A stretch of DNA of 56,754 bases from a virus (IMGVR_UViG_3300046656_000441:1-56754); one strand, 5' to 3'; counted from the first letter of the stretch, positions 1,057-56,161 are shown. Notes: generated from the sequence alone by a model not told the origin. Numbers and translations are program-made.

Positions 1057-1278
1057 TCAGTTGCAAAAGGCACACCAGGTGCCGCTGTCATCTCGTTCGG
1101 CCGCATCGACCGCTTTCGAGGACACACCCTCGACGGGCTTGTAACCATCGACGTCGAAGGTCTCATCCTCCAGCCGGTCAGCGTGCAGCCAGCACGCGTG
1201 GAACGTCGCGGTGTAGCCCTCGGGGCTCACGACTTGGCGCTTCACGCACGCGGGGCGAGGTCCGCTGATAGGTGTCAT
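1057..1278 (-). CDS. Hypothetical Cys/His protein
   Basis: Overlaps the upstream stop (ATGA); ends WCAFCN. Confidence 0.4.
   Translation of the reverse strand: MTPISGPRPACVKRQVVSPEGYTATFHACWLHADRLEDETFDVDGYKPVEGVSSKAVDAAERDDSGTWCAFCN
1062..1078 (-). promoter_or_regulatory. Weaker sigma54-type -24/-12 element CTGGTGTGCCTTTTGCA
   Basis: GG-N10-GC with TTGCA; 13 nt between GC and ATG 1049. Confidence 0.4.
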
Positions 1279-1553
1279 CGGTGCCTCGCAATCTCGCGCA
1301 TGTTGTGCTGCACGACATAGGCGCGAACCCCCACCAGGCCGGCGCCCATCGCGAGCGCGAGACGCGGGTGTGTCGCATGCAGCCGGCGCAGCGAGCGGTC
1401 AGCCGCCCATGCTTGCGCGCCCAGGATGCCATCAATCGCCACCGGGTTCTGTGTAGGCAGAAGCACCTCGCGCCCGCCAGTGTTCAGCATGTAGTGGGTG
1501 GTTGCGGCGTCCGAGCCGGCGAGAATCCACCAGGACAATAGCAGGGGCTTCAT
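1275..1553 (-). CDS. Small membrane protein, DUF5658-like
   Basis: Hydrophobic segments with DAATT..GGRE..P pattern recalled from DUF5658-type proteins. Confidence 0.45.
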   Translation of the reverse strand: MKPLLLSWWILAGSDAATTHYMLNTGGREVLLPTQNPVAIDGILGAQAWAADRSLRRLHATHPRLALAMGAGLVGVRAYVVQHNMREIARHR

Positions 1554-1912
1554 CGGCGGCTCAGCGTCAGCACGCCATAGGGGCCGATGCAGCGCTCCCA
1601 GGTGGACGCGTCGAAGATGTTCCCGCGCACCGTGGTTGCCTCGCTCTTGCCGATGAACGGCTTGGGACCGCCCGCATAGAGCACGGCGCCGTCGCTGTTG
1701 CGGATGAAACCGTAGTAGGACGAGCCCTTGTAGCCCTGCGGGCCGGTCTCGACGCGCATGAGCTTGGTGTATTTCGGGCCAGCGCTGGCCTCGATGTGCG
1801 TGACGTAGAGTCGCACGCTATCGCCCGCATGGGTCTTGTTGGTGACGCGTTCGACTTCCGCGATGAAGTCTTCGAGCGCGGCGTCGAACGTCTGCTTCTG
1901 TGTGGTTTCCAT
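1550..1912 (-). CDS. Conserved-looking phage early protein (METTQKQ...; KY..FI...G.V...P...RGNIFD)
   Basis: AGGAGG RBS; clean codon bias. Confidence 0.6.
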   Translation of the reverse strand: METTQKQTFDAALEDFIAEVERVTNKTHAGDSVRLYVTHIEASAGPKYTKLMRVETGPQGYKGSSYYGFIRNSDGAVLYAGGPKPFIGKSEATTVRGNIFDASTWERCIGPYGVLTLSRR

Positions 1913-1927
1913 TGTGCCCTCCTGATG

Positions 1928-1943
1928 TGCAATCACCGTGCCA
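1928..1943 (-). promoter_or_regulatory. sigma54-type element TGGCACGGTGATTGCA
   Basis: Matches TGGCACG-N4-TTGCW; 16 nt from GC to ATG 1912. Confidence 0.75.
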
Positions 1944-2124
1944 CCCGCATCAGCATCTCTTCGGCGCCCATCACCGCCGGCTCGCCGCAGCGCTTGCACG
2001 GGTAGCCCTTGGCGTCGGGCTCCACGAACGTCTGGCGCCCGTGGCAGGCGACGCAGAACCCCGTGCCGTTGTCCTTCTCGACTGCCGTCATTATCGCCTT
2101 GATGGTGAGCTTCAGCTTGGTCAT
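1933..2124 (-). CDS. Small zinc-ribbon protein (CVAC...CKRC)
   Basis: AGGAGG RBS; two CxxC pairs. Confidence 0.6.
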   Translation of the reverse strand: MTKLKLTIKAIMTAVEKDNGTGFCVACHGRQTFVEPDAKGYPCKRCGEPAVMGAEEMLMRVAR

Positions 2125-2324
2125 TTCGCCCTCCTGATTCGGACGATGTTGTCTTCCGTCGCGACGCCAGGCGTGCCGTAGCGCCCGCCCATGTTCAGCA
2201 CCCAGCCGTAGGGTCCGCGCATCACCGCCTTGCCCGACTTCTCCGCCCACTCCTGGCCGTCGCGCCCGATGCCGGCGGGCACGAGGATGGTGACGCGGTC
2301 GCCGTGTCGAATGGTATCAATCAT
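2121..2324 (-). CDS. Hypothetical protein (MIDTIRHGDRV...)
   Basis: AGGAGG RBS before ATG 2324. Confidence 0.6.
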   Translation of the reverse strand: MIDTIRHGDRVTILVPAGIGRDGQEWAEKSGKAVMRGPYGWVLNMGGRYGTPGVATEDNIVRIRRAK

Positions 2325-2503
2325 TGTGCCTCCTGATTGTGCAATCGCTGTGCCACCAGCCAGCCGCGCACGCCTTGGCGTGCGGGACCGAGCAAGACGG
2401 GGCGTTTGGCTGCACGTTTCGCGCGGCGTGCCCGTATCCACGCGTATAGCTCCTCCGGTGTCATCGTCGCGTTGCGTTTCGCGCGGGTCATTCTCGCCAT
2501 CAT
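2321..2503 (-). CDS. Small basic hypothetical protein, first gene of the leftward arm
   Basis: ATGA overlap with the next gene; start uncertain. Confidence 0.35.
   Translation of the reverse strand: MMARMTRAKRNATMTPEELYAWIRARRAKRAAKRPVLLGPARQGVRGWLVAQRLHNQEAQ
2340..2355 (-). promoter_or_regulatory. sigma54-type element TGGCACAGCGATTGCA
   Basis: TGGCAC-N5-TTGCA; 16 nt from GC to ATG 2324. Confidence 0.75.
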
Positions 2504-2506
2504 TCA

Positions 2507-2606
2507 CCGTCCTGATTCGGGGACGACTGTCCTGATTTGCCGTCCTGATTCGGGGACGAGAACCGCCCGCGAGCGTCGCGTAGCGCGTAGAACCGCTCGC
2601 GAGCGT
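2507..2606. repeat. Short direct repeats
   Basis: CCGTCCTGATTCGGGGACGA at 2507-2526 and 2540-2559 (partial GTCCTGATT at 2529-2537); AGAACCGCYCGCGAGCGT at 2559-2576 and 2589-2606. Confidence 0.85.
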
Positions 2607-2618
2607 AGCCACCTATCT

Positions 2619-2861
2619 CGGCACGAATCTTGCCCAGCAGGCGCGTCTCGTGCAAGTCCGACCGCTTTGGTCCGGCATGGACTATGCTGTCATCAGCGAA
2701 GCGCGTGCCGCGTTCCCGATTACGTTTTCGCATGGGCCGTGCGATTGCAAGCGAGATGCCGGCGAGTGTTCCACAAAAATAGGACACGAAGTATCGATAG
2801 TGGACATTCGGAGCACGGGAAACGCGAAAACGCCAGTGTTTACGCTGGCACGCCGCGTGCT
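2619..2861. promoter_or_regulatory. Divergent control region with 7 GG-N10-GC sigma54-type elements
   Basis: + strand: CGGCACGAATCTTGC 2619, AGGCGCGTCTCGTGCA 2639, CGGCATGGACTATGCT 2673, GGGCCGTGCGATTGCA 2734, CTGGCACGCCGCGTGCT 2845; - strand: CGGCACGCGCTTCGCT 2695-2710, CGGCATCTCGCTTGCA 2746-2761. Confidence 0.7.
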
Positions 2862-2873
2862 CTATTGTCTGGC

Positions 2874-3080
2874 ATGCCCACCAAAACCGCCGATTACGAT
2901 AAGCGCTATTCCGTTCTATGGCTATCGCGTGACGGAGAGCCCGAACTAGTCGCGCGTCCAGTCGCGCGGTTTCGCACGCTACAGAACGCGCGAGACTTTG
3001 CCACAGAATATGCTGCCGATACATCGGGCGGATTCGTGGCGATTCGCGACAATGAGACCGATACGTTCATCGAATCGTAA
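2874..3080 (+). CDS. Hypothetical early protein (MPTKTADYDKRY...), probably leaderless
   Basis: C-terminal part of ORF 2337..3080; ATG 13 nt after the GC of the 2845 element; no SD. Confidence 0.5.
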   Translation: MPTKTADYDKRYSVLWLSRDGEPELVARPVARFRTLQNARDFATEYAADTSGGFVAIRDNETDTFIES

Positions 3081-3107
3081 ACCGCAGCCTATCAGGAGAT
3101 TACAAAA

Positions 3108-3509
3108 GTGAAAAACCACGGCCAGTCGAACAACACCATCACGCGCTCACTCGCAAACGCGCAGATTGCGCATGCGGCATCATCGGTCGTATTCGACGCG
3201 CGCGACGTCGCCAGCGTCGACGCGTTGTCCACGGTTTTCCGTATCTACACTGAGGACACGGGCGACGATTTCCCGGAGCATGTGACCCGCATCGGCTTTG
3301 ATGGCGCGACGATGTTCAGCGCGACCGGCATTTACAAGGGCCAGACGGAGCGTTCCGCCGTGCTCGAAATCATCGCCCCATACGGGCGTCGCGCCGATGT
3401 GCTCGCGCTCACGGTCGCCCTTGTTGATGCGCATCATCAGGAGTGCGCTATTCTCTCCTGGCAGAACGCCCGCGTGTTCGATTCAACGTTCGTCTTCGGC
3501 TCGCGGTAA
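3108..3509 (+). CDS. Hypothetical protein (G.T.F...G.YKG..E.S...EI)
   Basis: AGGAG RBS; globular-looking composition. Confidence 0.6.
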   Translation: MKNHGQSNNTITRSLANAQIAHAASSVVFDARDVASVDALSTVFRIYTEDTGDDFPEHVTRIGFDGATMFSATGIYKGQTERSAVLEIIAPYGRRADVLALTVALVDAHHQECAILSWQNARVFDSTFVFGSR

Positions 3510-3535
3510 CCACGGCATTTCAGGGAGAACGGGCA

Positions 3536-3808: not shown

Positions 3809-4444
3809 ATGCGCATCAACAAATCGCCCCATGCGGCCCACGTAGCGCGCTACCGCGCGAATCTTCGCAAGGTATACGCGCGCGCGACCGATGCCGACAA
3901 ACGCGAAGGGCTGGCGTGGTATCCAACCGCCGCGGCAGGCTGCAATACATGGGCGCAAGGTTTTGGGCTAGACGCCCGCACAATCGCCAGCGTCATTGCA
4001 GCCATCAGTCCGCAATGCGACTGGACAAGCAACCTGCGCATTGCGTTCGAACTACTCTCAGGACAGCCGCGGGTTACCGGTGGCGCCTTGCGCGCGAACG
4101 TCGAAAAGGCGCGCCAAATCTTGAACGACCGTGCTCACGGGGTAGCAGGGTATTTCAAGGTTGCCCCGAAAGTGACCGCGTTTTCGCGCAACCTGGCTGG
4201 AGATGATAGCGTCGTCACAATCGATGCGCATGCAGCGCAAGCCGCAACCAACAACCTGGGCATTTCCACGGTTAGACCTGCCGCCTACGTCGTGTTCTCA
4301 CAGTGTTACGTCGACGTGGCGCGCGAGCTGGGGATTCGCCCTTGCGATTTCCAAGCAATCGTATGGTGTGCGTGGAAGCGTCGATACTCGCCGGAGCGTA
4401 AACGCGCCATCAAACGCGCGAACGCGCGCAAGGCGGAGGACTAG
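3809..4444 (+). CDS. DUF7178-like / HhH DNA-glycosylase-like phage protein
   Basis: G..WY, IAAISPQ..W..N, KV.AF..N, VTIDAH, QA..W motifs recalled from this phage family. Confidence 0.55.
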   Translation: MRINKSPHAAHVARYRANLRKVYARATDADKREGLAWYPTAAAGCNTWAQGFGLDARTIASVIAAISPQCDWTSNLRIAFELLSGQPRVTGGALRANVEKARQILNDRAHGVAGYFKVAPKVTAFSRNLAGDDSVVTIDAHAAQAATNNLGISTVRPAAYVVFSQCYVDVARELGIRPCDFQAIVWCAWKRRYSPERKRAIKRANARKAED

Positions 4445-4448
4445 CACA

Positions 4449-4706
4449 ATGGTAATCGACGCCTTGATAGACTTCGACGGGGGCGCCATCACGCAGACGG
4501 TTGACGGAGCGCTCCGCGTTCGATTCGCGCTCGAATGCTACCACGGGGCATTGTCGGATAGCTTGAACGACCGGTATCGTGCCCGGGGCAATGATGCCGG
4601 TTGCGATTTGCTACGCTCGCAGCTGACCGCGCTCGAATCCCAGCTAACCCGCGTGCGCGAAGCCATTGCGCGCGCCTACACCGAAAAGGGAGTATCTCAT
4701 GTCTGA
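4449..4706 (+). CDS. Hypothetical protein with C-terminal coiled coil
   Basis: GGAGG RBS before ATG 4449. Confidence 0.5.
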   Translation: MVIDALIDFDGGAITQTVDGALRVRFALECYHGALSDSLNDRYRARGNDAGCDLLRSQLTALESQLTRVREAIARAYTEKGVSHV

Positions 4707-4956
4707 TAGCTATCGCCGTTACAGCGCTGACTCGGAGGACCTTGGGAGCACGACGCGTGAGGACGCCAAGCGCTGGCGCGCCTACATGCGGAGCCTTGAG
4801 GAGCGAGGCGCGCCGCGTAAACGCGCGCACTCCACTGGAACGATGCACGCGAGCACGCGCGCATCATTCGACGCCGCATGTGCGCGCGCACGCGCGACAC
4901 ATGAGGACGAATCAATCGATGCGCGCGAAATGTTCGCGCGCATCATCGCCAGCTAG
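4699..4956 (+). CDS. Hypothetical protein (MSDSYRRY...)
   Basis: GGGAG RBS; overlaps the upstream stop. Confidence 0.4.
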   Translation: MSDSYRRYSADSEDLGSTTREDAKRWRAYMRSLEERGAPRKRAHSTGTMHASTRASFDAACARARATHEDESIDAREMFARIIAS

Positions 4957-5435
4957 ACTGCTACTCGGGACGCGCGCCTAGTGCGCGCGTTCCGCCCATC
5001 ATCATCGACGCGCGCATCACGCGCGCATCACTCCCGCCCATTACGCCATTCAACGTAACGCGCGACACGTGCGCGGCGCGCGCGCGTCGCATCGATTGAC
5101 ATTCACGCGCGCGTGATTCTCGCGCGTGAACGCGTGCGCCACTTCCGGCCGCACGTCCTTCCACCCGATATGGCGCGCCCGGCGGCGAGCGTAGCGAGGA
5201 CGTGTGGGGGTGCGCCCGATTCCGGCGCCGAATCCGGCCAGGCAAGCGGACCTGGGGCGCCGCGTTCCGGCCCGAAACCCCGGCATCGAGGGGGATTAGG
5301 CACAGAGTTGCACCGGCCGGGGAACCGGCCAACGTTGGCCAATGGACGTCCATAGGGGGATGCGCGCGCGTACGCACGCGTGTGCTGGGGGTGTGTGGGG
5401 TGGGTAGTCCTGACCCGCGATGTCTGCTGCCATTA

Positions 5436-5451
5436 TGGTGCAGCCCTTGCA
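5436..5451 (+). promoter_or_regulatory. Weaker sigma54-type element TGGTGCAGCCCTTGCA upstream of the packaging genes
   Basis: GG-N10-GC with TTGCA in non-coding DNA. Confidence 0.4.
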
Positions 5452-5482
5452 GGATGTCAAGCTCCCGTGTTACCATCGGTGC

Positions 5483-5563
5483 GTGACCATCCTCCGAGCC
5501 GTCTGCCTGGTGGCTGGGCTAGCGGCATTCATCCTCTACGCCAAGCTAAAGCCCGAGAACTAA
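5483..5563 (+). CDS. Possible 26-aa membrane peptide (MTILRAVCLVAGLAAFILYAKLKPEN)
   Basis: GTG..TAA frame ending at the terS RBS; one hydrophobic helix; below the ORF track cut-off. Confidence 0.25.
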   Translation: MTILRAVCLVAGLAAFILYAKLKPEN

Positions 5564-5570
5564 AGGAGTT

Positions 5571-10253: not shown

Positions 10254-10270
10254 TTGGCACGCTCCTTGCT
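10254..10270 (+). promoter_or_regulatory. sigma54-type promoter TTGGCACGCTCCTTGCT
   Basis: Consensus match filling the intergenic gap; GGAG SD lies downstream of the predicted +1. Confidence 0.8.
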
Positions 10271-10293: not shown

Positions 10294-10821
10294 GTGAAAA
10301 TGGTAGACGCTCAGTGCAAGACCTGTGCCACCGTGCGCGTGGACACGCTCATGCGCGACACCGGGTTCATCGCCCCCTGCCAGGAATGCGGCGCCGATAT
10401 GGAGCCGCTGTCCACCACATCGCGCCCGAGCGCGACCACGCCAGCCGTCGCTCCTGATTCAATCCCTGGAGGGATGTGGATTCGCCACGGCATCTGTAAT
10501 ATCGACGGGACCCCGCGTCGCTACGACTCGTTCTCGGAGATGCGCAAGGAAGCCAAGGCGCGCGGCCTCTACAACGTGGTCGAGCACGAGACCGACCCCA
10601 GCTCCGGCTCCGACAAGAACAAGCACACGCAGCGGTTTGTCGGCCTGCCGGCCTCCCTGACGCAAGCGGACGAGGACGCACGCGTCGCCGCGTGGTGGGC
10701 CAACGAGAAGCTCGAAGGCTACGCACCGCCGGCACCACCGACCCAGGAAACCGGTATTCGCATGGGCGGCTCGAACGACCCGCACGCGAACACCAAGGCC
10801 ATCATCAAAGCACATATCTGA
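10294..10821 (+). CDS. FmdB-like zinc-ribbon protein
   Basis: CKTC...CQECG at the N-terminus. Confidence 0.65.
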   Translation: MKMVDAQCKTCATVRVDTLMRDTGFIAPCQECGADMEPLSTTSRPSATTPAVAPDSIPGGMWIRHGICNIDGTPRRYDSFSEMRKEAKARGLYNVVEHETDPSSGSDKNKHTQRFVGLPASLTQADEDARVAAWWANEKLEGYAPPAPPTQETGIRMGGSNDPHANTKAIIKAHI

Positions 10822-21864: not shown

Positions 21865-23606
21865 TTTCTCTCCGTAAGTTCCTCGGCGGCTCATGGGAAA
21901 CCGTGCGCGACTACCTCCAGAGCGACCTGGAGGCCATCGAGACGAGCTTCAACACCCTGGTGGCGAACTCGTTCAACGACGACGGGACCATTGCCCCGAG
22001 CGCCTTCCCCGGGGAGTCCGACGCCGCCACGCGCTACATCGCGAACACCGGCACCAACCACGCCCCGAAGTGGGACCAGGTCGAGCTGAGCAACGGTGTC
22101 AAGGGTCGACTGCCCTTTGCAAATCTCGTGCCAGCGTCACGCGGAGGCGTCCTGGTGGGGCGCCAGAACAACATCCGGGGCGATTTTGGCGAGATTTACC
22201 TCGGAGCAGGTTTGCGCATGTCGGGCAACGTGCTGGAGGCAGTTCCGGCGCCGCCGGCAGCGTCCCCCGAAGAGAACTTCGCGACCGGGGGGATTCCTGG
22301 GCCGATGGGTCCGCAGGGGCCAGCGGGACCGATGGGACCCCCGGGACGGGATGGGATGGACGGTGGCGGCGGCGACTGGTCCATGTCGAGCGTCAGCTCG
22401 GAGGGGAACATCTTCACCCCGGGCAGCGTTATCTTTGCCGGCGCCAGTGGCATCCTCGCCCAGGACAACGCGGGCCTCTTCTGGGACGACACGAACAACA
22501 TACTGACGGTGGCCTCGGCGTCGGCGCTCGCCGCAGTCGAGACCGATGGCCTGGTGCTGTCCAATGCGACCGCGGCGACCGGTGGGGTGCTCGTCCAGAT
22601 GCCGCCGCGCCTCAAGTTCGCCGGGTCCGCGTGGAACGGCGCGACTGCCGACGCGATGACGGCATACCTGGAATGGTTGCCCCAGTCGGGCACCACGCGC
22701 GGCCAAATCAAGTTCGGCGTGCAGCGCAACGGCGCCTCGACCACCTATCCGGTTATCATCGACTCCAACCCCACCTCGGGTGCGGCCATTCTGACGCTGT
22801 CCTCGCCGGGCGCGTTTCGTGGCGGCGACGGCAGTGCAGCTTCTCCCGTGTTCGGCTTCGTCAACAGTGGCGGTGGGAGCGCCATCGGCTTCTGGACGCC
22901 GGCCGCGAACGACATGGACCTGGTGTGCGGCGGGGCCAACCAGATTCTCTGGGGCGCCTCGCTCTGGCGCAACAGCGCAAACCTGCTGATGGGCTGGTCA
23001 AGCAACGCCGACCCGAACAATGCAGTGGCGGATACGGCGTTCATTCGCCAGGCCGCAGCGAAAATCAAGTTCTACAACAAGCCCGAGACGACACCGGACG
23101 CCGGCTTCACGCTCGACTTCTCGGTGGACTCTGTGGCTCGCTTCCGCGACCGTGCGGACTCCACCGATGTGGTCGTCAAGGGCGCCGGCTACGCGTTCCC
23201 CGGGACCCAGATTGCCTCGGCCGATGCCAACACCCTGGATGACTACGAGGAAGGCACCTGGACGCCATCCGATGGGAGCGGCGCCGCATTGAGCTTCGCC
23301 GGGGTGAACGCCACCTATGTGAAAGTCGGCCAGGCGGTGCACGTGAGTTTCCAGTTCACGTTCCCGGCCACGGCCAGCGGCGCCGCGATTGTCATCGCCG
23401 GGCTCCCGTTCGCCGTCGAGAACTCGGGCGTCAGCGACTGGGGCGGCGCCTTCACCTACACCACACTGGCGCAAAGCAACACGCTACTCGCGGTCAACAA
23501 CTCGACCACATTCGCCGTTTTCACCAACGCTGGCGTCGGCGTCACGAATGCCGCTTACACCGGCCAGGTGTTCAACGGCTTCCTCGTTTACCGCGCCGCA
23601 GCCTAG
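21861..23606 (+). CDS. Tail fibre protein with a short collagen-like segment
   Basis: GPMGPQGPAGPMGPPGRDG; C-terminal ANTLDDYEEGTWTP fibre motif. Confidence 0.8.
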   Translation: MISLRKFLGGSWETVRDYLQSDLEAIETSFNTLVANSFNDDGTIAPSAFPGESDAATRYIANTGTNHAPKWDQVELSNGVKGRLPFANLVPASRGGVLVGRQNNIRGDFGEIYLGAGLRMSGNVLEAVPAPPAASPEENFATGGIPGPMGPQGPAGPMGPPGRDGMDGGGGDWSMSSVSSEGNIFTPGSVIFAGASGILAQDNAGLFWDDTNNILTVASASALAAVETDGLVLSNATAATGGVLVQMPPRLKFAGSAWNGATADAMTAYLEWLPQSGTTRGQIKFGVQRNGASTTYPVIIDSNPTSGAAILTLSSPGAFRGGDGSAASPVFGFVNSGGGSAIGFWTPAANDMDLVCGGANQILWGASLWRNSANLLMGWSSNADPNNAVADTAFIRQAAAKIKFYNKPETTPDAGFTLDFSVDSVARFRDRADSTDVVVKGAGYAFPGTQIASADANTLDDYEEGTWTPSDGSGAALSFAGVNATYVKVGQAVHVSFQFTFPATASGAAIVIAGLPFAVENSGVSDWGGAFTYTTLAQSNTLLAVNNSTTFAVFTNAGVGVTNAAYTGQVFNGFLVYRAAA

Positions 23607-23876: not shown

Positions 23877-24041
23877 ATGACACTCGAACAGCTCATCGAG
23901 GACATCAAACAGCTGACCGCGCAGCGCGACCAGCTCATTGGGCAGACGAACCAAATCATCGGTGCGCTCCGCTACGCCCAGGGGCTCAGGGAGCAGATGG
24001 AGCACCCCGCGGACGTTGCAAAAACCGAGCCAACCACGTAA
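23877..24041 (+). CDS. Small coiled-coil protein (MTLEQLIEDIKQL...)
   Basis: 54-aa ORF not in the track; heptad pattern; GGGGA RBS. Confidence 0.55.
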   Translation: MTLEQLIEDIKQLTAQRDQLIGQTNQIIGALRYAQGLREQMEHPADVAKTEPTT

Positions 24042-24855: not shown

Positions 24856-25998
24856 ATGGCCGACCAGACCACCGACCCGTGGGCGACGCAGGACAACTAC
24901 CCGAACGGGGCTCCTGCCGGTAGCCCCACGACGGAGCCCGTGCCCCCGACCAGCACGACCCAGGTCCAACCGACCAAGGCAGCGCTGCCAACCCCGACCG
25001 GGACCCTGGCGCGGCCCTCGACCGACCCGTGGTATATCGATGCGCAGAAGGACCCGAACAACCCCGACTTCTACCAGGGGCGCAAGTCCCAGCTGGACGA
25101 CTGGGTGAACTGGGTCAAGGGCTCGCAGTTCTCGAACGGCACCGACGACGGACGTGGCACGGGTTTTGCAGGGGGCGCGGCCCAATACCGCAACCCACAG
25201 GGGCTCCAGGCGCTCGCGGACGCCTACAACGCGTCGCACCCCGGCCAGAACGCCAAGCCGGTGTTCGACAGCGCGAACGACAAAATCGACTTCGGCTTCG
25301 GCCCGGTGGACGTCATCACCGCGGGCGGGCAGTATTGGTATGACAACGGCAATTCGGCGCTCGGGCCGTTGGCACAGCAGGGCAGCGGTGGCGGAGCCGG
25401 TGGTGGCAGCGCAGCCGGCGGCTCCGGCGGCGCGACGGGTAGCATCCCTGGCGGTCAGCTCGGCTACCAGGACCCGAGGATGCAGCAGCTCTACAACGAG
25501 CTGGTGGCTCGCTCGAACCAGTCGCTGAACGTCGACCCGAACGACCCGATTATCAAGGCGCAGGTCGACGCGTTCCGCAACGCGCAGACGCGTGGACAGC
25601 GCGCCAACCTGGCGGCGCTCGCGGAGCAGGCTGGCCCGAACTCGAATCAGACGGCCGAAACCCGCCATGCGGGCGAAGTCGTCGGACAGCAGACCGCCGG
25701 CATGCAAGCCGAGCTGATGGGCCGCGAGGTCGATGCTCGACGCAAGGAAATCGCGGACGCGCTCAACGGTCGCTTCGGGGTGCTCTCGGCGGCTCAACAG
25801 GCGCAGCTGCACCGCGAGGACGAGCTGCTGCAGAGCCGGTCCCTGGACATCCAGTCGCAGCTCGGCAACCGTGGCTACGACGTGCAGAGCCAGCTGGGCA
25901 ACCGCAACGCGGACATCAGCGCGAACGCGAACGACAACGCCGCGGCGCAGAACGCGTGGCAGAATCAATACGACATTCTGTTCGGGAAGGGCTACTAA
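24856..25998 (+). CDS. Putative internal virion/ejection protein
   Basis: Gly/Gln/Ala-rich with helical C-terminus; position after tail genes. Confidence 0.55.
   Translation: MADQTTDPWATQDNYPNGAPAGSPTTEPVPPTSTTQVQPTKAALPTPTGTLARPSTDPWYIDAQKDPNNPDFYQGRKSQLDDWVNWVKGSQFSNGTDDGRGTGFAGGAAQYRNPQGLQALADAYNASHPGQNAKPVFDSANDKIDFGFGPVDVITAGGQYWYDNGNSALGPLAQQGSGGGAGGGSAAGGSGGATGSIPGGQLGYQDPRMQQLYNELVARSNQSLNVDPNDPIIKAQVDAFRNAQTRGQRANLAALAEQAGPNSNQTAETRHAGEVVGQQTAGMQAELMGREVDARRKEIADALNGRFGVLSAAQQAQLHREDELLQSRSLDIQSQLGNRGYDVQSQLGNRNADISANANDNAAAQNAWQNQYDILFGKGY
25155..25170 (+). promoter_or_regulatory. Intragenic sigma54-type element TGGCACGGGTTTTGCA
   Basis: Consensus match, encoded with atypical codons (GGT TTT GCA). 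Confidence 0.6.
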
Positions 25999-36821: not shown

Positions 36822-37052
36822 TTATTCTCCTGCAATCGGCATGCCGTCTGGGAGGAACTGCTTCCAGCTGTCGGGGAACGGCAGCGGCTCCTGCTGCTCG
36901 TAGTGGACCCGGCGCTTGTCGGCGTGGATGATGTGGAAGCGCTCCCCCTCAGACTCAAAGAACCCCGGCACCTCGGCCTCGGCCTCGATGGTTCCCTGGA
37001 TGACGTCAATGCCGTTGCGCATGCGCACCACGAGCCGGCGCAGGGCGCTCAT
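36822..37052 (-). CDS. Hypothetical protein
   Basis: ATGA overlap; packed ORF. Confidence 0.45.
   Translation of the reverse strand: MSALRRLVVRMRNGIDVIQGTIEAEAEVPGFFESEGERFHIIHADKRRVHYEQQEPLPFPDSWKQFLPDGMPIAGE
36831..36846 (-). promoter_or_regulatory. sigma54-type element CGGCATGCCGATTGCA
   Basis: GGCA-N6-TTGCA; 13 nt from GC to the SPFH ATG. Confidence 0.65.
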
Positions 37053-43066: not shown

Positions 43067-43839
43067 CGGACCCTCCTCAATGCGTCAATGACGCGGATAG
43101 CCTTCGCGGTTCCCAGCCGGCGCGGGCCGGAGGGGGTTTCGACTTCGAGGTCTTCCCAAGCGCTCAGGGGCATTGCGAGCATCGCGGCGAGACTCCCTTT
43201 GCACCACTTCTCCACCGCTTTGGACGCTGCAAGACCGATGCCAGGGCACAGGTCCATCACCGCCAGGCGGAACGAGGACACCGGCTTGATGCCCATCTTC
43301 TCGGGGCGAATCATCGTCTTCATGGTGGTGTGCTGGTCCCACTGCTTATCGGTGAACGACCGATACAGGGAGACCAGCCAGCGCACGCTCTGCGCCTGGT
43401 TGGACGTCTGCTTAAGAATCATGCCGCCGCGCAGCGTGAGGCTCAGGAGCGCCTTTTCGAGCGTGTCCTCCGAGAACCCACCGGGCACCGAGCGCCGGCC
43501 GATACCCTGCGAAACTAGATGCCCGGCCCGGTCTGTCGAGTATGCGCCCTCCACGAGCAGGAACACGAAGTCGTATGTATCGTGGAGACGCGAGAGCTGG
43601 GATTCTTGCCCGGCCTCAGTAGACATGCCTTGCAGGCGCCCACTCCTGAGTGAGCCAACGAGGTCGTTAAGCGCCTTCCGCTCCACGCCGACTTCGCAAT
43701 CGCCGTCGGGGCCATTGCCGGTGAACGCGAAGTCAGCTGAGTCGAGAATCGCGGGTTTCGCATCAATCCCCGCTCTTCGCAGCGCCGGCAGCATTTCCTT
43801 CGAGCCCACTCGACTGTCGACCCACATCGTTGATGCCAT
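43063..43839 (-). CDS. ERCC4-domain nuclease
   Basis: VDSR, L.SADF, VERK...DL..S...GRL, LLVEG; HhH-like C-terminus. Confidence 0.85.
   Translation of the reverse strand: MASTMWVDSRVGSKEMLPALRRAGIDAKPAILDSADFAFTGNGPDGDCEVGVERKALNDLVGSLRSGRLQGMSTEAGQESQLSRLHDTYDFVFLLVEGAYSTDRAGHLVSQGIGRRSVPGGFSEDTLEKALLSLTLRGGMILKQTSNQAQSVRWLVSLYRSFTDKQWDQHTTMKTMIRPEKMGIKPVSSFRLAVMDLCPGIGLAASKAVEKWCKGSLAAMLAMPLSAWEDLEVETPSGPRRLGTAKAIRVIDALRRVR
43228..43244 (-). promoter_or_regulatory. sigma54-type element CTGGCATCGGTCTTGCA
   Basis: Near-consensus; about 160 nt upstream of the gene preceding polA. Confidence 0.65.
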
Positions 43840-46949: not shown

Positions 46950-47999
46950 CTACGGCTTACCGTTGCCGTTGCCGTTGCCGTTGCCACCACCGTTACCGGG
47001 CGGCGTTGTCGGCGGCGTCGGGTTATTCGGCGTCCCCGGCGTGCCTCCACCAGGCGGCGTCGGCGGCGTCGGCGTGGTGACGTGAGTCGTGCGCCCGTCG
47101 CACTTGCCGGCGTAGTCCCGGGTGTGCCCAGCGTGCGCGCTGTCGATGGCCTGCTGCGTGATATTCAGGTCCTGTTCCTTGTCCGCGCTGTCGACGTGGC
47201 ACCAGTCGACTTTCTTCGGAGCCGGCGGCGGGATGTCGACACACTGGCCGTCGACCAGCTGCTTCCCATCGGGCATCGTCGCTTGTGCTCCCGGAATGTT
47301 GGGGCACACGTCAACGACCGGGGGCGGCGGCGGCGCGTTCGGCACGCAGACCGGCGTTCCCTGGCCCAGCTCAGGATGCTGTCCCGGAGGGCAGCTCAGC
47401 GGCGGAGGCGGCGGAGGCGGCACCACCACAATCACGCGTGTCCCGGTGCGCTTCAGCAGGAACGTGCCCCGGTCTCCGTCCTTGGCGTTCTGTGAGTTAT
47501 GACATGTCGCCTCGTAGTTCCCCCTCAGAGTGTCGAACCCATCAGGCGTCCCCTGGGCGAATACCACGTTCGTTGCGGTCCACGTCGTGCAGCTGCCGTT
47601 CTCTCCGAAGTGCAGCCCGCCGTAGTGGATGGTAATCGTGCCGCTCAGGCTTCCACTGATGTCGGTTGTCTGGAAGTTGAACGCATACGCGCCGACGCTG
47701 AGCTGCAGAGCCGCCGCGACGCTCGCGGTGCTGTTGCTGCTGAAGGTAACAGTTACGTTACCGTTGGCGTTGCTCGGCATAACCAGCACGGGCGACGTCG
47801 GACCCACAAACGGGGCGCCGATGAGGACAATGGCGTCCTCCGCGGACAGCTTCCCACTGGTCGGGGGCGCTGCCGTGTCACTGGGTCCCGTGATGGTCAC
47901 CTGGCCGAGGCTGCTATCGCCCGGGCCGACGATGTGACGACTGTTACAACCAACGAACGCGAGCGACGCGAGCAATACCGCAACGAACTTCATTCTCAT
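46950..47999 (-). CDS. Pro/Cys-rich lipoprotein
   Basis: GGAGGT RBS; MRMKFVAVLLASLAFVG-C lipobox; poly-Pro; DVCPNIPG.Q; (GN)n tail. Confidence 0.75.
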   Translation of the reverse strand: MRMKFVAVLLASLAFVGCNSRHIVGPGDSSLGQVTITGPSDTAAPPTSGKLSAEDAIVLIGAPFVGPTSPVLVMPSNANGNVTVTFSSNSTASVAAALQLSVGAYAFNFQTTDISGSLSGTITIHYGGLHFGENGSCTTWTATNVVFAQGTPDGFDTLRGNYEATCHNSQNAKDGDRGTFLLKRTGTRVIVVVPPPPPPPLSCPPGQHPELGQGTPVCVPNAPPPPPVVDVCPNIPGAQATMPDGKQLVDGQCVDIPPPAPKKVDWCHVDSADKEQDLNITQQAIDSAHAGHTRDYAGKCDGRTTHVTTPTPPTPPGGGTPGTPNNPTPPTTPPGNGGGNGNGNGNGKP

Positions 48000-48012: not shown

Positions 48013-48879
48013 TTAGGGTTTCGCCAACTGATGCGCCGAAATCCACGCAATGAGTGGTGGTGCAATATACTTGCCAACAAACGTCATCACCGTGCCGAAC
48101 TGCTGGGTGAACGTCCGCACCTCGCCCCGAATCTCGGTCACCTTCTGGTTGGTGTCCAGCTCCAGCCGCATCAGCTCGGCTACCTGGGCCTGGAGCGTCG
48201 TGTCGACTACTGGCGGCGGCGGCGGGACCGGGGTCGGTGTGGGCGTCGGGGTCGGGGTCGGTGTGGGCACGGGTGTCGGCACGGGCGCCGGCACGAGCTG
48301 CCCCTCGCGCCACACAATCGGCAACGGGTGCTGTCCGTTGGCGTCGGGCCACACGACTTCCAGGATGTTGGTCCGCGCGTGCAGCGGCGTCTGGTTGTCG
48401 CTGCGCGTCGAGCCGGCCACCACCATTACGCCGATACGTTCACCAGGGAACGGATTATGGCCGCTCATCTCGTGCCAGCGGCCCGGGTCATACAGCCACC
48501 CGGTGCCAATCAGGTCGCTCGGGGAGCCCTCGGGCTTCGAGCCGTTGGTCTGGCTCGGCCGCAGGCGCTCGGCGCCCGTGGCGAACCACTGGCCGTTGAT
48601 GTTCAGGAACACCCACAGCGTGCCCGACTGGCTCGGCGGGCCGGCGTCGATGCTCACAGACGGCCAGTTCTCGGTGTTGCTGGTCTGGAGGTCCATGTGC
48701 CCGCCGCCCACGCCGAAATTGTCGAGCGTCGCGGATACTGGGAAGCCGAGAATCGCCGGGTCACTGCCTACGACCACCACGCAGCCCGGGCCACGGTCGC
48801 CGCACGCGACGGTGGGAATCTGGGCCGACGCCGACGCCGACACGAGCAACGCCACCAAGATGGCGAGTGCAGTTCTCAT
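48013..48879 (-). CDS. Exported protein with PT linker and C-terminal anchor
   Basis: Signal peptide ending ASA-Q; (PT)n; coiled coil; hydrophobic C-terminus. Confidence 0.7.
   Translation of the reverse strand: MRTALAILVALLVSASASAQIPTVACGDRGPGCVVVVGSDPAILGFPVSATLDNFGVGGGHMDLQTSNTENWPSVSIDAGPPSQSGTLWVFLNINGQWFATGAERLRPSQTNGSKPEGSPSDLIGTGWLYDPGRWHEMSGHNPFPGERIGVMVVAGSTRSDNQTPLHARTNILEVVWPDANGQHPLPIVWREGQLVPAPVPTPVPTPTPTPTPTPTPVPPPPPVVDTTLQAQVAELMRLELDTNQKVTEIRGEVRTFTQQFGTVMTFVGKYIAPPLIAWISAHQLAKP
48061..48077 (-). promoter_or_regulatory. sigma54-type element TTGGCAAGTATATTGCA
   Basis: About 60 nt upstream of the lipoprotein ATG; atypical AT-rich codons. Confidence 0.65.
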
Positions 48880-50488: not shown

Positions 50489-50692
50489 CTATTGCACTCG
50501 GCGTGCCAAGGGCACAATGCGCAGCGGGTTGCCGGGAGTGCCAGTTGGCCAGAGTTTATAGCTGTCGCCGTGCTCATCAGTGAAGACGAAGTAGTCCTCT
50601 CTTGAGGTCATCTGCCGGTGCTCTGTCCGAATCAGAGGACAGCCCGTCCAACAACCCTGGTCGTCGGGCGCTCCACAACCGCGGCAAACCAT
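50489..50692 (-). CDS. Small hypothetical protein (MVCRGC...)
   Basis: AGGAGG RBS. Confidence 0.4.
   Translation of the reverse strand: MVCRGCGAPDDQGCWTGCPLIRTEHRQMTSREDYFVFTDEHGDSYKLWPTGTPGNPLRIVPLARRVQ
50493..50509 (-). promoter_or_regulatory. sigma54-type element TTGGCACGCCGAGTGCA
   Basis: 16 nt from GC to the helicase ATG; no SD. Confidence 0.7.
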
Positions 50693-50989: not shown

Positions 50990-51871
50990 CTAGCCCAGCG
51001 TCACGATGTCGCTGGTCTTGTCGAAGTTGACACCGTCCAGGGTGCCGAGCTTCTCGACGTCGAGCGCGAATGCACGAACCGCCTCACGCAGGTTGGCGTC
51101 CATGCTGTCCATCGCCTGGAGGAGCTTCACGCTGAGCTTGTTCCGCGTCAGCTTGTTCTCTTTCGCAGCCTTCAGGACCTGGGCCACCATCGTCTCCGCG
51201 GTCGCTTCGACAAGCGCCGCATCGACCGCAACGGACGCGCCGGCCTTCGAGCTGCCGGTGTTCGAGCTGCCGGCGAGCTTCGGCTGCGCCAGCTTCGTGA
51301 TGTCTTCCTGGCCGTAGTAGTTCGCGATGACCAGGTTCTCACGCTTGAACGTGCCACCCGGCTTGCCGTCCTTCGGAGCCACCACACGCGGGTGGTCGAC
51401 GGACCACTTGTCGGTTGCCGCCGCCCAGTCGAACATGGCGCGCACGCCGCGAATGTTCGAGTAGTCCGCCACGAGACCCGCGGGGTCCTCCGGGAAGTTC
51501 TCTTCGCTGAAGCCGTCCCCGCCGTCGACCGGCGCCGACAGGGAGTTCAGGAAGATAATCCACGGGGAGTCCTTGTAGAACCCCTTGGTGCCCTTGAGAC
51601 CGCGGCCGTCCGCCACAATCTCGTAGTCCTTGGCGTCGCCCACCTTGATGGGCTGCAGCGAGGGACCCTGTTCCTGCCGGCCATCTTCCTGGATGGTCAG
51701 CACCGCGAACAGCGCCTTGTAGGTGGACGGCTTGCCGTCCTTGCCGAGTGCCTGCCGTTCTTCCTTGAAGAGCGGGTTCTTGGTGGTGAAATTGATGTCG
51801 AGCACCACCCCGTCCTTGCGACGGAGGATTCCGCCGCCACCGACTGCTTTCGACGCGCGAGCTGAAGGCAT
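50990..51871 (-). CDS. Replication-module protein, possibly ssDNA-binding
   Basis: Strong codon bias; own sigma54 site; lies between the helicases; function inferred from position only. Confidence 0.4.
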   Translation of the reverse strand: MPSARASKAVGGGGILRRKDGVVLDINFTTKNPLFKEERQALGKDGKPSTYKALFAVLTIQEDGRQEQGPSLQPIKVGDAKDYEIVADGRGLKGTKGFYKDSPWIIFLNSLSAPVDGGDGFSEENFPEDPAGLVADYSNIRGVRAMFDWAAATDKWSVDHPRVVAPKDGKPGGTFKRENLVIANYYGQEDITKLAQPKLAGSSNTGSSKAGASVAVDAALVEATAETMVAQVLKAAKENKLTRNKLSVKLLQAMDSMDANLREAVRAFALDVEKLGTLDGVNFDKTSDIVTLG

Positions 51872-51875: not shown

Positions 51876-52403
51876 TTACTCCTCTGATTCGAGTTGACTG
51901 ACCGGGTTCACAGGTTCTTCTGCAAGCGGCGTGCCAGTGGCCTGCACCAGCTCCCGCAGCTTCACGAGCGCCTCCGGGGAATACTCGCAGCCACATGTGG
52001 GCAGGAGGTTGTCCCCGATGGCGTGCCGGTGCCCCGGGAGCACCGGCAAGAGGTCGATGATGGGCTGGAGCGCCTTGCGCTCCGCCTCGCGCCGCGCCCG
52101 CATCAGGGCTTTGCGCCCCTTGCGAAACTGGCGCCCGCTGAGCCCCGGCATTCGCTGCCAGGTGTTGCGCACCGAGCCGTCATCGTAAATCATCTGGACG
52201 GTGCCCCGAGCCGAGCGCATGTGGACTTCGGTGGGCTGGGGCGCACGGTTGGGGACCCGGAGGGAGATGGCGCGGCGCACCTTGCGCAGCGTGTTCTCCT
52301 CCTGGAGCCGGGCCTGGGCCGCAGCCAGCTCGGCGTCACCTACCGGGGACACCTCGTTGGCCTCGAACGGGGACACTTCCCCTTTGGTCGTTTCATCGTT
52401 CAC
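51876..52403 (-). CDS. Hypothetical protein
   Basis: GAGGAGG RBS. Confidence 0.55.
   Translation of the reverse strand: MNDETTKGEVSPFEANEVSPVGDAELAAAQARLQEENTLRKVRRAISLRVPNRAPQPTEVHMRSARGTVQMIYDDGSVRNTWQRMPGLSGRQFRKGRKALMRARREAERKALQPIIDLLPVLPGHRHAIGDNLLPTCGCEYSPEALVKLRELVQATGTPLAEEPVNPVSQLESEE
51921..51937 (-). promoter_or_regulatory. sigma54-type promoter CTGGCACGCCGCTTGCA
   Basis: Full consensus, 50 nt upstream of ATG 51871. Confidence 0.8.
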
Positions 52404-53563: not shown

Positions 53564-53889
53564 AACTTGACAGGTTTTTCTTTTCGAGCAGATAATGGCA
53601 GGACGACATCGCGGGAAACAGGAGCCTCACTTTGTGTTATGCCCACATTGCCACACACATCCACTCGGTTGTTACGCAAGGGGCGTAGCGAAGCGAAGCC
53701 CCCACTCACCCATGTCCACAGGGCTCCACGTATGGACGTCCGGACGTCCATTGGATATACAGGGGAATCGGTTGGTTCCACGTGTGCCGCCAGCAGTCGC
53801 CGCAATGCTTCCGCCTTGGTGAGCTCGGGCAGCGGGGAATCGGCCGGCGAGCGGTAGTAGTCGGTGGTTTCGCGCACCGTGTGAATCAT
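53560..53889 (-). CDS. Hypothetical protein
   Basis: ATGA overlaps at both ends. Confidence 0.35.
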   Translation of the reverse strand: MIHTVRETTDYYRSPADSPLPELTKAEALRRLLAAHVEPTDSPVYPMDVRTSIRGALWTWVSGGFASLRPLRNNRVDVCGNVGITQSEAPVSRDVVLPLSARKEKPVKL

Positions 53890-54149
53890 CGGGTCACCTG
53901 GTCGGCCCTTCGGGCCTCCTCTGCAACGGGATACGCCGCCAGCGGGTCGAACGGCTTCTCGATTTCATGCGCGAAGATGGCCTCGATGTGGAAGTTGATG
54001 TCATCGAGTAGCACAAAGACCACCACATTCGGCTTCCCGTGATGCCGCCACACCTGGATGTGTAGCTTGTCTTCGGTGAAGAGGTCCATCACTTCGCCCA
54101 GCTCGGGCCAGCGGTTGATGCGGCGACGCGCCCAGTCTGGGAAGCTCAC
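53886..54149 (-). CDS. Hypothetical protein
   Basis: GTGA overlap; codon bias. Confidence 0.45.
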   Translation of the reverse strand: MSFPDWARRRINRWPELGEVMDLFTEDKLHIQVWRHHGKPNVVVFVLLDDINFHIEAIFAHEIEKPFDPLAAYPVAEEARRADQVTR

Positions 54150-54556
54150 TGCTGCACCACGAACACGTCCACTGACGTGTGCTGCCGGGTCTTGTAGTTC
54201 AGCGAGTGCGCGAACCAGGTGTTCTGGTCCCAGCTGCCGGCGCCGTGCACCCGCTCGAACTCCTGGACAGATTCGGCGTCGCCGTCATAGCTCGTGCCGA
54301 TGATGCCGAAGTAGTCGTTCAGCTCCAGCACCACGTAGTCGGGGTCCTTCGAGAGCGTCTTGCCCAGGGGCAGGACATACAGGTCCACGTCCTTGTCGCT
54401 GTAGCCGTGGTTCAGCACGCCGCCGCCCAGGGCCACGTGGTAGCCCAGGGGCCACACGCGCGCCTGCAGCTCGCGCACGAGCACCAGGGCATCCGCGAGA
54501 TACCACGCGTGGCGCGGCTTGTAGCGTTCGAGGTCCTTCTTGACAATCGGGCTCAT
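54146..54556 (-). CDS. Minimal nucleotidyltransferase-like protein (Pol beta superfamily)
   Basis: ALGGG.......KDVDL and a third Asp in VDVF; GGAGG RBS before ATG 54556. Confidence 0.6.
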   Translation of the reverse strand: MSPIVKKDLERYKPRHAWYLADALVLVRELQARVWPLGYHVALGGGVLNHGYSDKDVDLYVLPLGKTLSKDPDYVVLELNDYFGIIGTSYDGDAESVQEFERVHGAGSWDQNTWFAHSLNYKTRQHTSVDVFVVQQ

Positions 54557-54653
54557 GCTTTCACCCTCCAGGTGGTCTTGCCGCTCGGCGCGATAACGCG
54601 CGTGTTGCCGGCGATGAGCTTCTCGCGGGGCGTCTGGGGCACAGGCTTGGCCA

Positions 54654-55103
54654 TTAGCGAACCTCCTGATAGCGCTCACGTCTCAGCGTGGCGTGGTTGT
54701 CGTCCTTGTGATTGAGATACACCGTGCGCACCGTCAGCGGGCTTACCATCCCGGTGCCTAGCGCGAGCACCACGTCGTAGTCGGTGCGCTCCAGGTGCAT
54801 CAGCTTGATGCCCTGGGCATTGCTCGAACCCACGAGCACATGGAGCGGGAAGCGCACCAGCCAGTGTGCCGGCATGCCCCCAAATGTGGACACCTCGATG
54901 ACCTCGAACGAGGACGGCAGGCGCTCCGGGAGCGCGTTCAGCAGCTCGCGTGCCGCCGTCTTGTCGAGTGCACGCGGCAGGCGCTCCAGTGCCGCCTCGC
55001 GAGCATGCTTGGAGTAGCTCAGGCGCACGCACGGCTGGGGCATCGGGTGCCCCTTGGGGAACCCCATATCACGATGGTAGAGTTTCGACAGCATGGTTGG
55101 CAT
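54654..55103 (-). CDS. Hypothetical phage protein (YSKHA...VRTVYLN...DNH.TL)
   Basis: GAGGAGG RBS; S.HA...VRT.Y pattern loosely resembles BECR-fold RNases. Confidence 0.55.
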   Translation of the reverse strand: MPTMLSKLYHRDMGFPKGHPMPQPCVRLSYSKHAREAALERLPRALDKTAARELLNALPERLPSSFEVIEVSTFGGMPAHWLVRFPLHVLVGSSNAQGIKLMHLERTDYDVVLALGTGMVSPLTVRTVYLNHKDDNHATLRRERYQEVR

Positions 55104-56161
55104 CAATCCTCCTCAGTTGGCTCAGTCTTGTGCAACGCGCGTGCCGGCTTGATGACAAAGGTCGAGTGTCGCTTTGTGATGACAGTGTCCGCGTCGATGC
55201 GCTCGATGCCGTATTCGAGCACCAGGTCGTCGGCCCCGCCCACGGTCTCCAGCCCGCCAAAGCTATTCTTGCGGTTGGTCAGCATCAGATGGCCCGGGTT
55301 GACCGCCTCCAGATACCATGTCGCTCGCGCGTAGTTGTGCCAGAACGCCGAGCCGAATGGCTTCATCACGTCGCCGGCTCGGTTCATGTGGGCCAACACC
55401 AGGGCGCCGCAGCGTAACCGGCGAAGCGCACCGAAGAACTCGGTGGGTATTTCAGCGCCCTCAGTGGCTGCTGCCGGCGCCGCTGAGTCGACCACCATGA
55501 ACTCGATGCCCAGGCGCTTGATAACTTCGCGCAACGAGTCCTCGATAACCGCCAGCGGCGCGCGTGCCGTCATGTAGTAGAGCCCCGGGAATACCTGGTC
55601 ATCGAACAAGCTGGTGAGCCGTTCCTTGTGGTCCTCTGCGCGCATTTCCCAGTCGAGATACAGTGTGGGTGTGTCGACGCTGAGCTGCGCCGCCCACCAC
55701 AGGGAGAGAAGCGACTTGCGCGCGCCGCCATCGGCAAACAGGATGGTGACGTCGTCGGTGAGAATGGGGAAACCCTTGATGTCAGCAAAGCGCTCGCTCT
55801 CGCGCGGCGTCACCTCATCGAGCACCACGGGCGCTTCGGTGCGCGCAATGTGGAACGACACACGGGCCAGGAATGAGTGAATGAGCGGCGCCCAGTTGTC
55901 CTCCTCAGTCGCAAACGCATTGAGGTAGCGAATGAGGCGCTCTCGATGCGCCAGGTCCGCGATGTCGACTTTGGCGCTGAACAGGTTGGTGCGCCGCACG
56001 GGGTCGTGCAGCATCGCCTTGGTGTTCAGGCGCTCACCGGTCCAATAGGGTTCCGTCAGCCTCAGCAGGTAGTCGCCCAGGCGCTCGTGGAACGAGTAGT
56101 CCTCTTCAACGCGTATGTTGTCGATGACGTCGAGCGCGTAGCTGGCGCGGGGTGATGGCAT
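55103..56161 (-). CDS. AAA_25/RepA-like helicase domain protein
   Basis: ADGGARKS (degenerate Walker A), LYLDWE, VVDS, LAH, PFGS..W. Confidence 0.7.
   Translation of the reverse strand: MPSPRASYALDVIDNIRVEEDYSFHERLGDYLLRLTEPYWTGERLNTKAMLHDPVRRTNLFSAKVDIADLAHRERLIRYLNAFATEEDNWAPLIHSFLARVSFHIARTEAPVVLDEVTPRESERFADIKGFPILTDDVTILFADGGARKSLLSLWWAAQLSVDTPTLYLDWEMRAEDHKERLTSLFDDQVFPGLYYMTARAPLAVIEDSLREVIKRLGIEFMVVDSAAPAAATEGAEIPTEFFGALRRLRCGALVLAHMNRAGDVMKPFGSAFWHNYARATWYLEAVNPGHLMLTNRKNSFGGLETVGGADDLVLEYGIERIDADTVITKRHSTFVIKPARALHKTEPTEED
55131..55146 (-). promoter_or_regulatory. sigma54-type promoter CGGCACGCGCGTTGCA
   Basis: 28 nt upstream of ATG 55103; SD falls within the predicted leader. Confidence 0.7.

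Follow-up and report, generated by a model that had tools for sequence, protein, structure and literature searches.

The 56,754-bp viral genome IMGVR_UViG_3300046656_000441, which was analysed over its whole length (the window), carries repeated copies of a short element, GGCA-N6-TTGCW, and the question that it raises is whether these copies are -24/-12 promoters of sigma-54 (RpoN) and what would activate them in a phage with no recognisable activator. An initial annotation, made from the sequence alone, had read them as a genome-wide RpoN regulon that serves early and middle transcription. The sigma-54-type element was borne out in our analysis, where it was found to be enriched, strand-biased, mostly located at promoter positions and kept in relatives. 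The sites are probably sigma-54 -24/-12 promoters that form a set without a phage-encoded activator. On our best reading, these host RpoN promoters would drive mainly the replication arm of the genome and would be fired by a host activator or a phage factor.

The genome has a computed GC content of 64.2%, close to the 65% or so that had been judged by eye, and a CheckV completeness estimate of 96%. About 76 genes were called with a model based on frame-specific GC content at third codon positions, codon usage and ribosome-binding sites, and these are split over two arms. The plus-strand arm (about 2.65-34.0 kb) contains the large terminase, the major head protein and the tail and tail-fibre-like proteins. 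The minus-strand arm (34.0-56.7 kb, running on at 1-2.3 kb) contains the replication genes, which include a weak AAA_25 ATPase, a UvrD-type helicase, a Sak4-like AAA_24 ATPase, an ERCC4 nuclease, a fusion of uracil-DNA glycosylase with DNA polymerase (UDG-PolA), an exonuclease and a deoxynucleoside monophosphate (dNMP) kinase fused to a deoxyribosyltransferase. Both arms diverge from a control region located at about 2.3-3.1 kb.

A total of twelve GGCA-N6-TTGCW sites (hereafter strict sites) were found in the genome, compared with a mean of 0.99 in 100 dinucleotide shuffles, none of which reached 12. The fuller pattern TGGCACG-N4-TTGCW also gave twelve sites at no more than one mismatch (five perfect and seven with one mismatch) where 0.79 were expected. 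Shuffling the order of codons within genes gave a mean of 2.4 sites and a maximum of 7, and shuffling synonymous codons while keeping the proteins gave a mean of 2.9 and a maximum of 5 (300 shuffles each); both procedures left intergenic sites unaltered. As the codon-preserving shuffles stay far below 12, protein coding does not force the sites. A reversed-pattern control gave 0-1 sites per genome. When two mismatches are allowed, 20 sites were observed against 11.3 expected, and since twelve of these belong to the class with one mismatch or fewer, the two-mismatch class is at chance level. A position weight matrix (PWM) was built from the strict sites, which makes it circular as an enrichment test and useful only for weaker members; it returned 17 sites of at least 12 bits in the genome against 1.5 in shuffles, and among the sites that it adds are 50493(-), which lies in the gap ahead of the helicase gene, and two weak control-region sites on the plus strand.

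The earlier site list can be compared directly with these counts. Its ten strict sites are all present, with 10254 and 25155 now placed at 10256 and 25156 (preceding T counted), while two further strict sites, 10315(-) and 22118(-), had been missed; its estimate of under one site by chance against ten seen becomes about one against 12 by shuffles, and the codon-preserving shuffles that it had proposed as a check leave the enrichment in place, with none of the 600 reaching 12. Among its close variants, 2619(+), 2695(-), 2846(+) and 50493(-) do have one or two mismatches, whereas 2673(+) has three. The sites that it had called weaker have three mismatches (1062, 2639, 2734 and 5436), two (40190 and 45427) or four (53352) and, with two to four mismatches each, are at chance level as a class.

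The flanking bases were tallied at positions outside the search pattern, for 33 strict sites pooled from this genome and from two related uncultured phages, G001 and G002, which are described below. The published extended sigma-54 consensus is rYTGGCACG-N4-TTGCW. T was observed before the GG in 26 of the 33 sites and A or G never, in a genome where T forms about 18% of the nucleotides. A pyrimidine follows GGCA in 30 sites and G occupies the next position in 24, a purine is located three bases before the GG in 25, and the final base of the motif is A in 28. The GG and GC elements occur at the fixed spacing that characterises the sigma-54 promoter class. We regard the element as the RpoN recognition sequence and not as a look-alike, and we take the agreement at flanking positions outside the pattern as the strongest single argument for this assignment.

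The individual sites and their surroundings are as follows.

2746..2761, minus strand: CGGCATCTCGCTTGCA; divergent control region, with the GC 14 nt before the ATG (2733) of the small basic open reading frame (ORF) 2500-2733(-); counterpart at G001 9297(+), before the orthologous ORF.
2340..2355, minus strand: TGGCACAGCGATTGCA; GC 17 nt before the ATG of 2121-2324(-), overlapping the 3' end of ORF 2321-2503(-); counterpart at G001 9602(+), in the same arrangement with an identical Shine-Dalgarno (SD)-ATG context.
1928..1943, minus strand: TGGCACGGTGATTGCA; perfect consensus, 17 nt before the ATG of 1550-1912(-); G001 9850(+) precedes the ortholog.
277..292, minus strand: TGGCATACGGCGTGCT; weaker (13.2 bits), 32 nt before 79-246(-).
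55131..55146, minus strand: CGGCACGCGCGTTGCA; within the final codons of the AAA_25 ATPase gene and 29 nt ahead of 54654-55103(-); weaker counterpart at G001 12684(+), likewise at the orthologous ATPase gene's 3' end.
51921..51936, minus strand: TGGCACGCCGCTTGCA; perfect consensus, 51 nt before 50990-51871(-); an identical 16-mer precedes the G001 ortholog, at 15656(+).
50493..50508, minus strand: TGGCACGCCGAGTGCA; one mismatch, intergenic, upstream of the UvrD-type helicase gene 48879-50477(-); counterparts upstream of the helicase orthologs at G001 16758(+), with the same GTGCA variant, and at G002 28638(-).
48061..48076, minus strand: TGGCAAGTATATTGCA; 69 nt before 46950-47993(-); no counterpart found in G001.
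43228..43243, minus strand: TGGCATCGGTCTTGCA; within the ERCC4 nuclease gene in sense orientation, 163 nt ahead of 42740-43066(-) and the UDG-PolA gene.
36831..36846, minus strand: CGGCATGCCGATTGCA; the SPFH/Band_7 gene 36270-36818(-) has its ATG 14 nt after the GC; G001 32276(+) is in the same place with another spacer.
10255..10270, plus strand: TGGCACGCTCCTTGCT; perfect consensus, intergenic, 25 nt before 10294-10821(+); the only promoter-placed site in the head region.
2619..2634, plus strand: CGGCACGAATCTTGCC; weak (12.6 bits), directed towards the plus arm and ahead of ORF 2650-2949(+); stronger counterparts facing the same way at G001 9433(-) and 9361(-).
2846..2861, plus strand: TGGCACGCCGCGTGCT; one mismatch, facing the plus arm, 248 nt before 3108-3509(+).
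25155..25170, plus strand: TGGCACGGGTTTTGCA; perfect consensus, sense, deep inside 24856-25998(+) with no start codon near; unmatched in G001.
10315..10330, minus strand: TGGCACAGGTCTTGCA; antisense inside 10294-10821(+), facing the 10255 site; unmatched in G001.
22118..22133, minus strand: TGGCACGAGATTTGCA; perfect consensus, antisense inside the tail-fibre-like gene 21861-23606(+); unmatched in G001.
24017..24032, minus strand: TGGCTCGGTTTTTGCA; one mismatch, antisense at the 3' end of ORF 23877-24041(+); G001 43891(+) is antisense at the same boundary.

The sites at 10255(+) and 10315(-) form a consensus-grade pair facing one another, one on either side of the start codon of gene 10294. We also considered whether 24017(-) could serve a reverse-strand gene lying downstream and set this aside, as the ORF looks spurious and is not conserved. 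The SPFH/Band_7 membrane protein (36270-36818(-)), located directly behind the 36831 site, is 85% identical to its G001 counterpart.

Under an automated rule applied to the three genomes, 28 of the 33 strict sites are co-oriented with their local genes (p = 3e-5), and two of the five non-sense sites are control-region sites of G001 that face the genes of the opposite arm. The earlier claim of co-orientation for all sites beyond the 2.6-2.9 kb cluster holds for those then listed, and the two sites added here, 10315(-) and 22118(-), are antisense. The GC lies 10-80 nt before a called, co-oriented start in seven of the twelve strict sites, compared with 4.8% of positions (p = 3.5e-7). An eighth site, 2746, precedes a small basic ORF that the gene model missed but that is conserved in G001. 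Eight of the twelve strict sites are located 14-69 nt ahead of a start codon, in agreement with the view that most sites sit just upstream of one. Overall, the sites were observed upstream of transcription units and in the same orientation, the exceptions being 10315, 22118 and 24017, which are antisense, and 25156, which is sense and deeply intragenic; these four share the 31 kb structural arm with the promoter-placed 10256. Of the 17 PWM sites (at least 12 bits), at least 10 lie on the replication arm in sense orientation, and the description 'genome-wide' was accordingly too broad.

Relatives were retrieved via the terminase and the helicase. G001 (54.8 kb) has a terminase protein 71% identical to that of this phage and contains twelve strict sites against none for the reversed-pattern control. 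About 11 of the 17 PWM sites have a G001 counterpart at the corresponding gene boundary, as counted by eye. At 36831, 2340 and 2746 the two blocks of the motif are retained in G001 while the spacer and flanks differ. As an example from the head region, 10256 was compared with seven loci of the G001 lineage, where only TGGCACG and CTTGC align, the surrounding DNA is unalignable and the spacer differs; with the seven loci differing hardly at all among themselves, this is in effect a comparison of two lineages. The 30-nt segment around 43228 is 97% identical to G001, the highest value in an ERCC4 gene that averages 64%. The conservation check that had been suggested therefore came out in favour of the sites, which recur at matching positions in G001 with flanks that no longer align.

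The second uncultured phage, G002 (56.2 kb), has only four of 82 queried proteins in common with this phage, namely the exonuclease (59% identity), the helicase (44%), PolA (23%) and a tail segment. It was found to contain nine strict sites against one in the control, and all nine point with the local genes. By hand inspection, several of them are located 25-33 nt before an SD-ATG and one precedes the helicase gene. The site density per 10 kb is 2.1 in this phage, 2.2 in G001 and 1.6 in G002. A third genome, G003, has three sites against two in the control, four cultured helicase relatives have 0-2 sites each, and 80 exonuclease-sharing phage loci (1.08 Mb) have 42 sites against 25, about 0.4 per 10 kb; the 808 kb of these loci with at least 58% GC have 29 against 22. 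As the control loci and the cultured relatives are not enriched, the trait is specific to these genomes and not to GC-rich phage DNA generally. G002 (L024) also encodes, at 54-2018(+), a 654-aa protein with two ADP-ribosyltransferase domains and a ParB N-terminal domain that this phage lacks and which we take to resemble phage enzymes that modify host RNA polymerase.

No enhancer-binding protein could be recognised, as had been noted at the outset: a six-frame search with PF00158 (Sigma54_activat) gave no match at E<=1 in the genome or in G001, and a GAFTGA-like peptide is absent from every frame of both. An 11-bit PF00158 match in G002 was rejected as an activator because it is the P-loop inside a DUF5906/VapE-like primase-helicase. 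The Walker A motif was found in only three proteins of the genome, the terminase, the Sak4-like ATPase and the helicase, all with ordinary roles. Searches with Sigma54_DBD, Sigma54_CBD and Sigma70_r2 gave no match at E<=1 in the genome, G001 or G002 (Sigma54_AID was not searched), and a six-frame search of the same three genomes found no tyrosine integrase. The repeat GTCCTGATT was considered as a general enhancer and rejected, since it is confined to the control region, where its copies at 2506-2552 exist because ORF 2500-2733(-) encodes a tandem SSPNQDG peptide repeat. This ORF and 2321-2503(-) are small arginine-rich ORFs that head the minus arm, and neither has a family match. Another candidate, the DUF7178 protein at 3809-4444(+), has a Pfam match at E = 2e-40 and is 80% identical to its G001 counterpart where its neighbours are 38-54% identical; in the protein atlas it falls in viral clusters only, with no hint of a host. 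It was rejected as a shared activator because it is absent from G002, G003, NP1 and YuA.

In the mechanism that we favour, host RNA polymerase with sigma-54 would bind the sites and transcripts would start about 12 nt after the GC. In this lineage, most of the transcription units on the minus-strand replication arm would have such a site at their head, and so would one unit in the head region. The replication-arm units are those of the small early ORFs (2.7-0.1 kb), of the genes that follow the AAA_25 ATPase, of the helicase, of the genes running into UDG-PolA, and of the SPFH and dNMP-kinase genes. As the phage has no gene for an AAA+ protein of the enhancer-binding kind, a host enhancer-binding protein would most likely form the open complexes. 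A host activator is also preferred because the sigma-54 promoters of Pseudomonas phage YuA appear to fire with host factors alone. The primary study of YuA, by Ceyssens et al. in 2008 (J Bacteriol 190:1429), is said to have used a promoter-trap assay in which the sigma-54 promoters were highly active, and the accessible portions of the YuA literature lead us to infer that this assay ran without phage factors.

Several observations weigh against this reading. At 2746, 36831, 2340 and 1928 no more than 14-17 nt separate the GC from the ATG, a stretch that includes the SD, and this spacing is retained in G001; a start 12 nt after the GC would then produce leaders of 2-5 nt without a Shine-Dalgarno sequence. 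The consensus-grade sites 10315, 22118 and 25156 are antisense or deeply intragenic and are not conserved. No activator was found by looking for PF00158, GAFTGA, a shared upstream dyad or k-mer, or a site like that of integration host factor (IHF): at the 33 upstream regions no shared dyad or k-mer was observed outside the control region, in a comparison of low power, and IHF-like sites numbered zero in the upstream regions and one across the three genomes. A search for a T7-type RNA polymerase gave no match and is uninformative, as its control matched nowhere either. The presence of rpoN in the host is assumed. A terminase search of bacterial genomes for prophage relatives that could point to the host found none, and an exonuclease search returned two contigs of metagenome-assembled genomes (MAGs) at 33-37% identity, a Planctomycetaceae MAG and a Micavibrio MAG, which are too distant for a host to be named from them. 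Furthermore, five sigma-70-like sites that match 10-11 of 12 positions were found, at 5432-5460(-), 24427(+), 24682(+), 46846(-) and 53567(+), where 0.7 were expected. The one at 5460(-) is just left of a small-terminase-like gene and points away from it, and for two of the five, G001 has a site at the corresponding position: 6579(+), and 43530(-), which is orthologous in position to 24427. With these five sites, sigma-54 is probably not the only route of transcription and RpoN need not be the main one, so that an exclusive reliance on RpoN, as first envisaged, is not upheld.

The gap left by the missing activator could also be filled by a new kind of phage factor in place of a host enhancer-binding protein, either a non-AAA+ activator or a protein that makes the sigma-54 holoenzyme activator-independent, with a small arginine-rich early protein or another unannotated early protein as the candidate. 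A DNA-bound host activator normally needs an upstream activator sequence, and no shared sequence of this type or IHF-like site was observed at the 33 sites; at least ten promoters would have to be served, most early proteins have no family match, and the accessible part of a 2026 preprint hypothesises, without showing it, that a phage AAA+ protein lacking GAFTGA acts on sigma-54 polymerase. We nevertheless consider such a factor unlikely, given that the few proteins common to G002 (exonuclease, helicase, PolA and a tail segment) leave no common candidate visible by sequence, that the three Walker A proteins have standard roles and that the promoter-trap results for YuA, as far as the accessible text goes, point to activity without phage factors. 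A bolder form of this idea, which we rate as distinctly improbable, is that this lineage and, independently, G002 transcribe most replication genes via host sigma-54 without an AAA+ activator or enhancers of their own, with a small phage protein of a novel family remodelling the holoenzyme or freeing it from its activator. If true, this would be the first case in nature in which the need for an enhancer-binding protein is bypassed, and the 14-17 nt spacing would mark near-leaderless transcripts.

The same spacing can be viewed differently, with sites that bind sigma-54 holoenzyme mostly without initiating and act as roadblocks, by occlusion over ribosome-binding-site DNA or as a sink that titrates RpoN. 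Closed sigma-54 complexes are known to be stable without an activator, none was found here, four sites and their G001 counterparts overlap the SD-ATG region at the conserved distance, and there are antisense sites, of which 24017 is conserved in position. A sink, however, needs neither the sense bias (28 of 33) nor the placement before genes, a dozen sites per genome copy would be a modest sink unless the copy number is high, and the sites with SD-containing leaders of 25-74 nt resemble ordinary promoters; we therefore hold this to be highly unlikely. It is more improbable still that the motif is read by an unrecognised phage DNA-binding protein or polymerase specificity factor and mimics the sigma-54 consensus. 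Phages commonly have promoter motifs of their own (the accessible text on YuA mentions nine promoters with such a motif), the T7-type polymerase search was uninformative and most proteins are unannotated, but about 12 informative consensus positions are matched, including those outside the search pattern, the same motif is enriched in G002 with almost no proteins in common, and the phage has no domain of the sigma-70 family. An origin by chance, from composition or as a coding artefact, for which one could cite the GC-rich genome and the chance-level two-mismatch class, is already rejected by the dinucleotide and codon-preserving shuffles, by the reversed-pattern control and by the counts in the 808 kb of GC-rich loci (only 29, against 22 in the control).

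In sequence terms the phage is without a close cultured relative. A megablast search for near-identical DNA with 20 kb of the genome found no match among cultured phages, and neither did tblastn with the portal protein nor a search with the AAA_25 protein, while the large terminase is at most 28% identical to that of any cultured phage. For the helicase, the nearest cultured homologues among the best 20 of 200 matching records are encoded by ~58 kb siphoviruses of Proteobacteria, at 33-35% identity, namely Nipunavirus phages of Pseudomonas and Xanthomonas as well as phages of Variovorax and Sphingomonas.

Other features of the genome were also noted. The stretch at 4700-5570 is without a confident gene and is rich in CGCGCG-type direct and inverted repeats, and it may be an origin or packaging region. 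A uracil-DNA glycosylase domain is fused to a family A DNA polymerase at 40096-42735(-), and a dNMP kinase to a nucleoside 2-deoxyribosyltransferase-like domain at 35302-36318(-); together, the two fusions hint at an unusual nucleotide metabolism. At the end of the structural arm lies a gene for a trypsin-like peptidase (33202-33801(+)), and no endolysin was recognised among the proteins of the late arm that were scanned.

The use of host sigma-54 by a phage is not in itself novel. Pseudomonas aeruginosa phage YuA (Yuavirus) depends on host sigma-54 according to the accessible portions of two papers (PMC5053324, PMC10914365), of which the first describes such use as rare, with YuA as the example, and the second describes nine YuA promoters with a phage-specific motif; like the phage studied here, YuA has no activator of its own described in these portions. 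Its GenBank record annotates three high-activity promoters as '-24/-12 consensus', all in the structural/lysis arm, and no enhancer-binding protein, as in this genome. The YuA genome is roughly 64% GC. YuA is likewise siphovirus-sized (58.7 kb), uses host RpoN, as is predicted for this phage, and has one of its promoters just before a head gene, comparable with the 10256 site. However, the two phages are unrelated: there is no DNA match, YuA was not among the best 20 of the 200 helicase records, and the sequence relatedness to YuA or M6 that would define a Yuavirus was not observed. YuA has one strict GGCA-N6-TTGCW site, located outside its annotated promoters, and the best match within them is 8 of 12 positions, whereas this phage has twelve strict and about 17 PWM sites that are mostly near-consensus and mostly on the replication arm.

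Bacterial sigma-54 regulons share the -24/-12 consensus, and those of Salmonella and E. coli include many intragenic and antisense RpoN sites, comparable with the mix seen here. The density of about two sites per 10 kb is very high against published bacterial regulons. Bacterial sigma-54 promoters are also paired with enhancer-binding proteins and upstream activator sequences, neither of which is detectable in this phage. The middle and late promoter motifs of phages, such as the nine-promoter motif in the accessible text on YuA, resemble the present case in being short conserved motifs repeated before many genes, but they are phage-specific and need phage cofactors, whereas the motif here is a host sigma consensus that recurs in G002. 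A full-text literature search found no other phage with sigma-54 promoters, and a Salmonella study tied rpoN to phage resistance only through metabolism.

If these sites are real promoters, RpoN dependence would be a strategy that recurs among phages, the signal that fires the host activator, whichever it is, would be coupled to phage development, and loss of rpoN would be predicted as a route of resistance against such phages. They would also form a compact natural set of about a dozen strong sigma-54 promoters, without an enhancer or an encoded activator, for asking what opens complexes during infection. While host RpoN use is already known from YuA, what is new here is a predicted use that is denser, nearer to consensus and centred on replication, in two nearly unrelated uncultured phages, and this comparison suggests that the present phage depends on host sigma-54 far more than YuA does.

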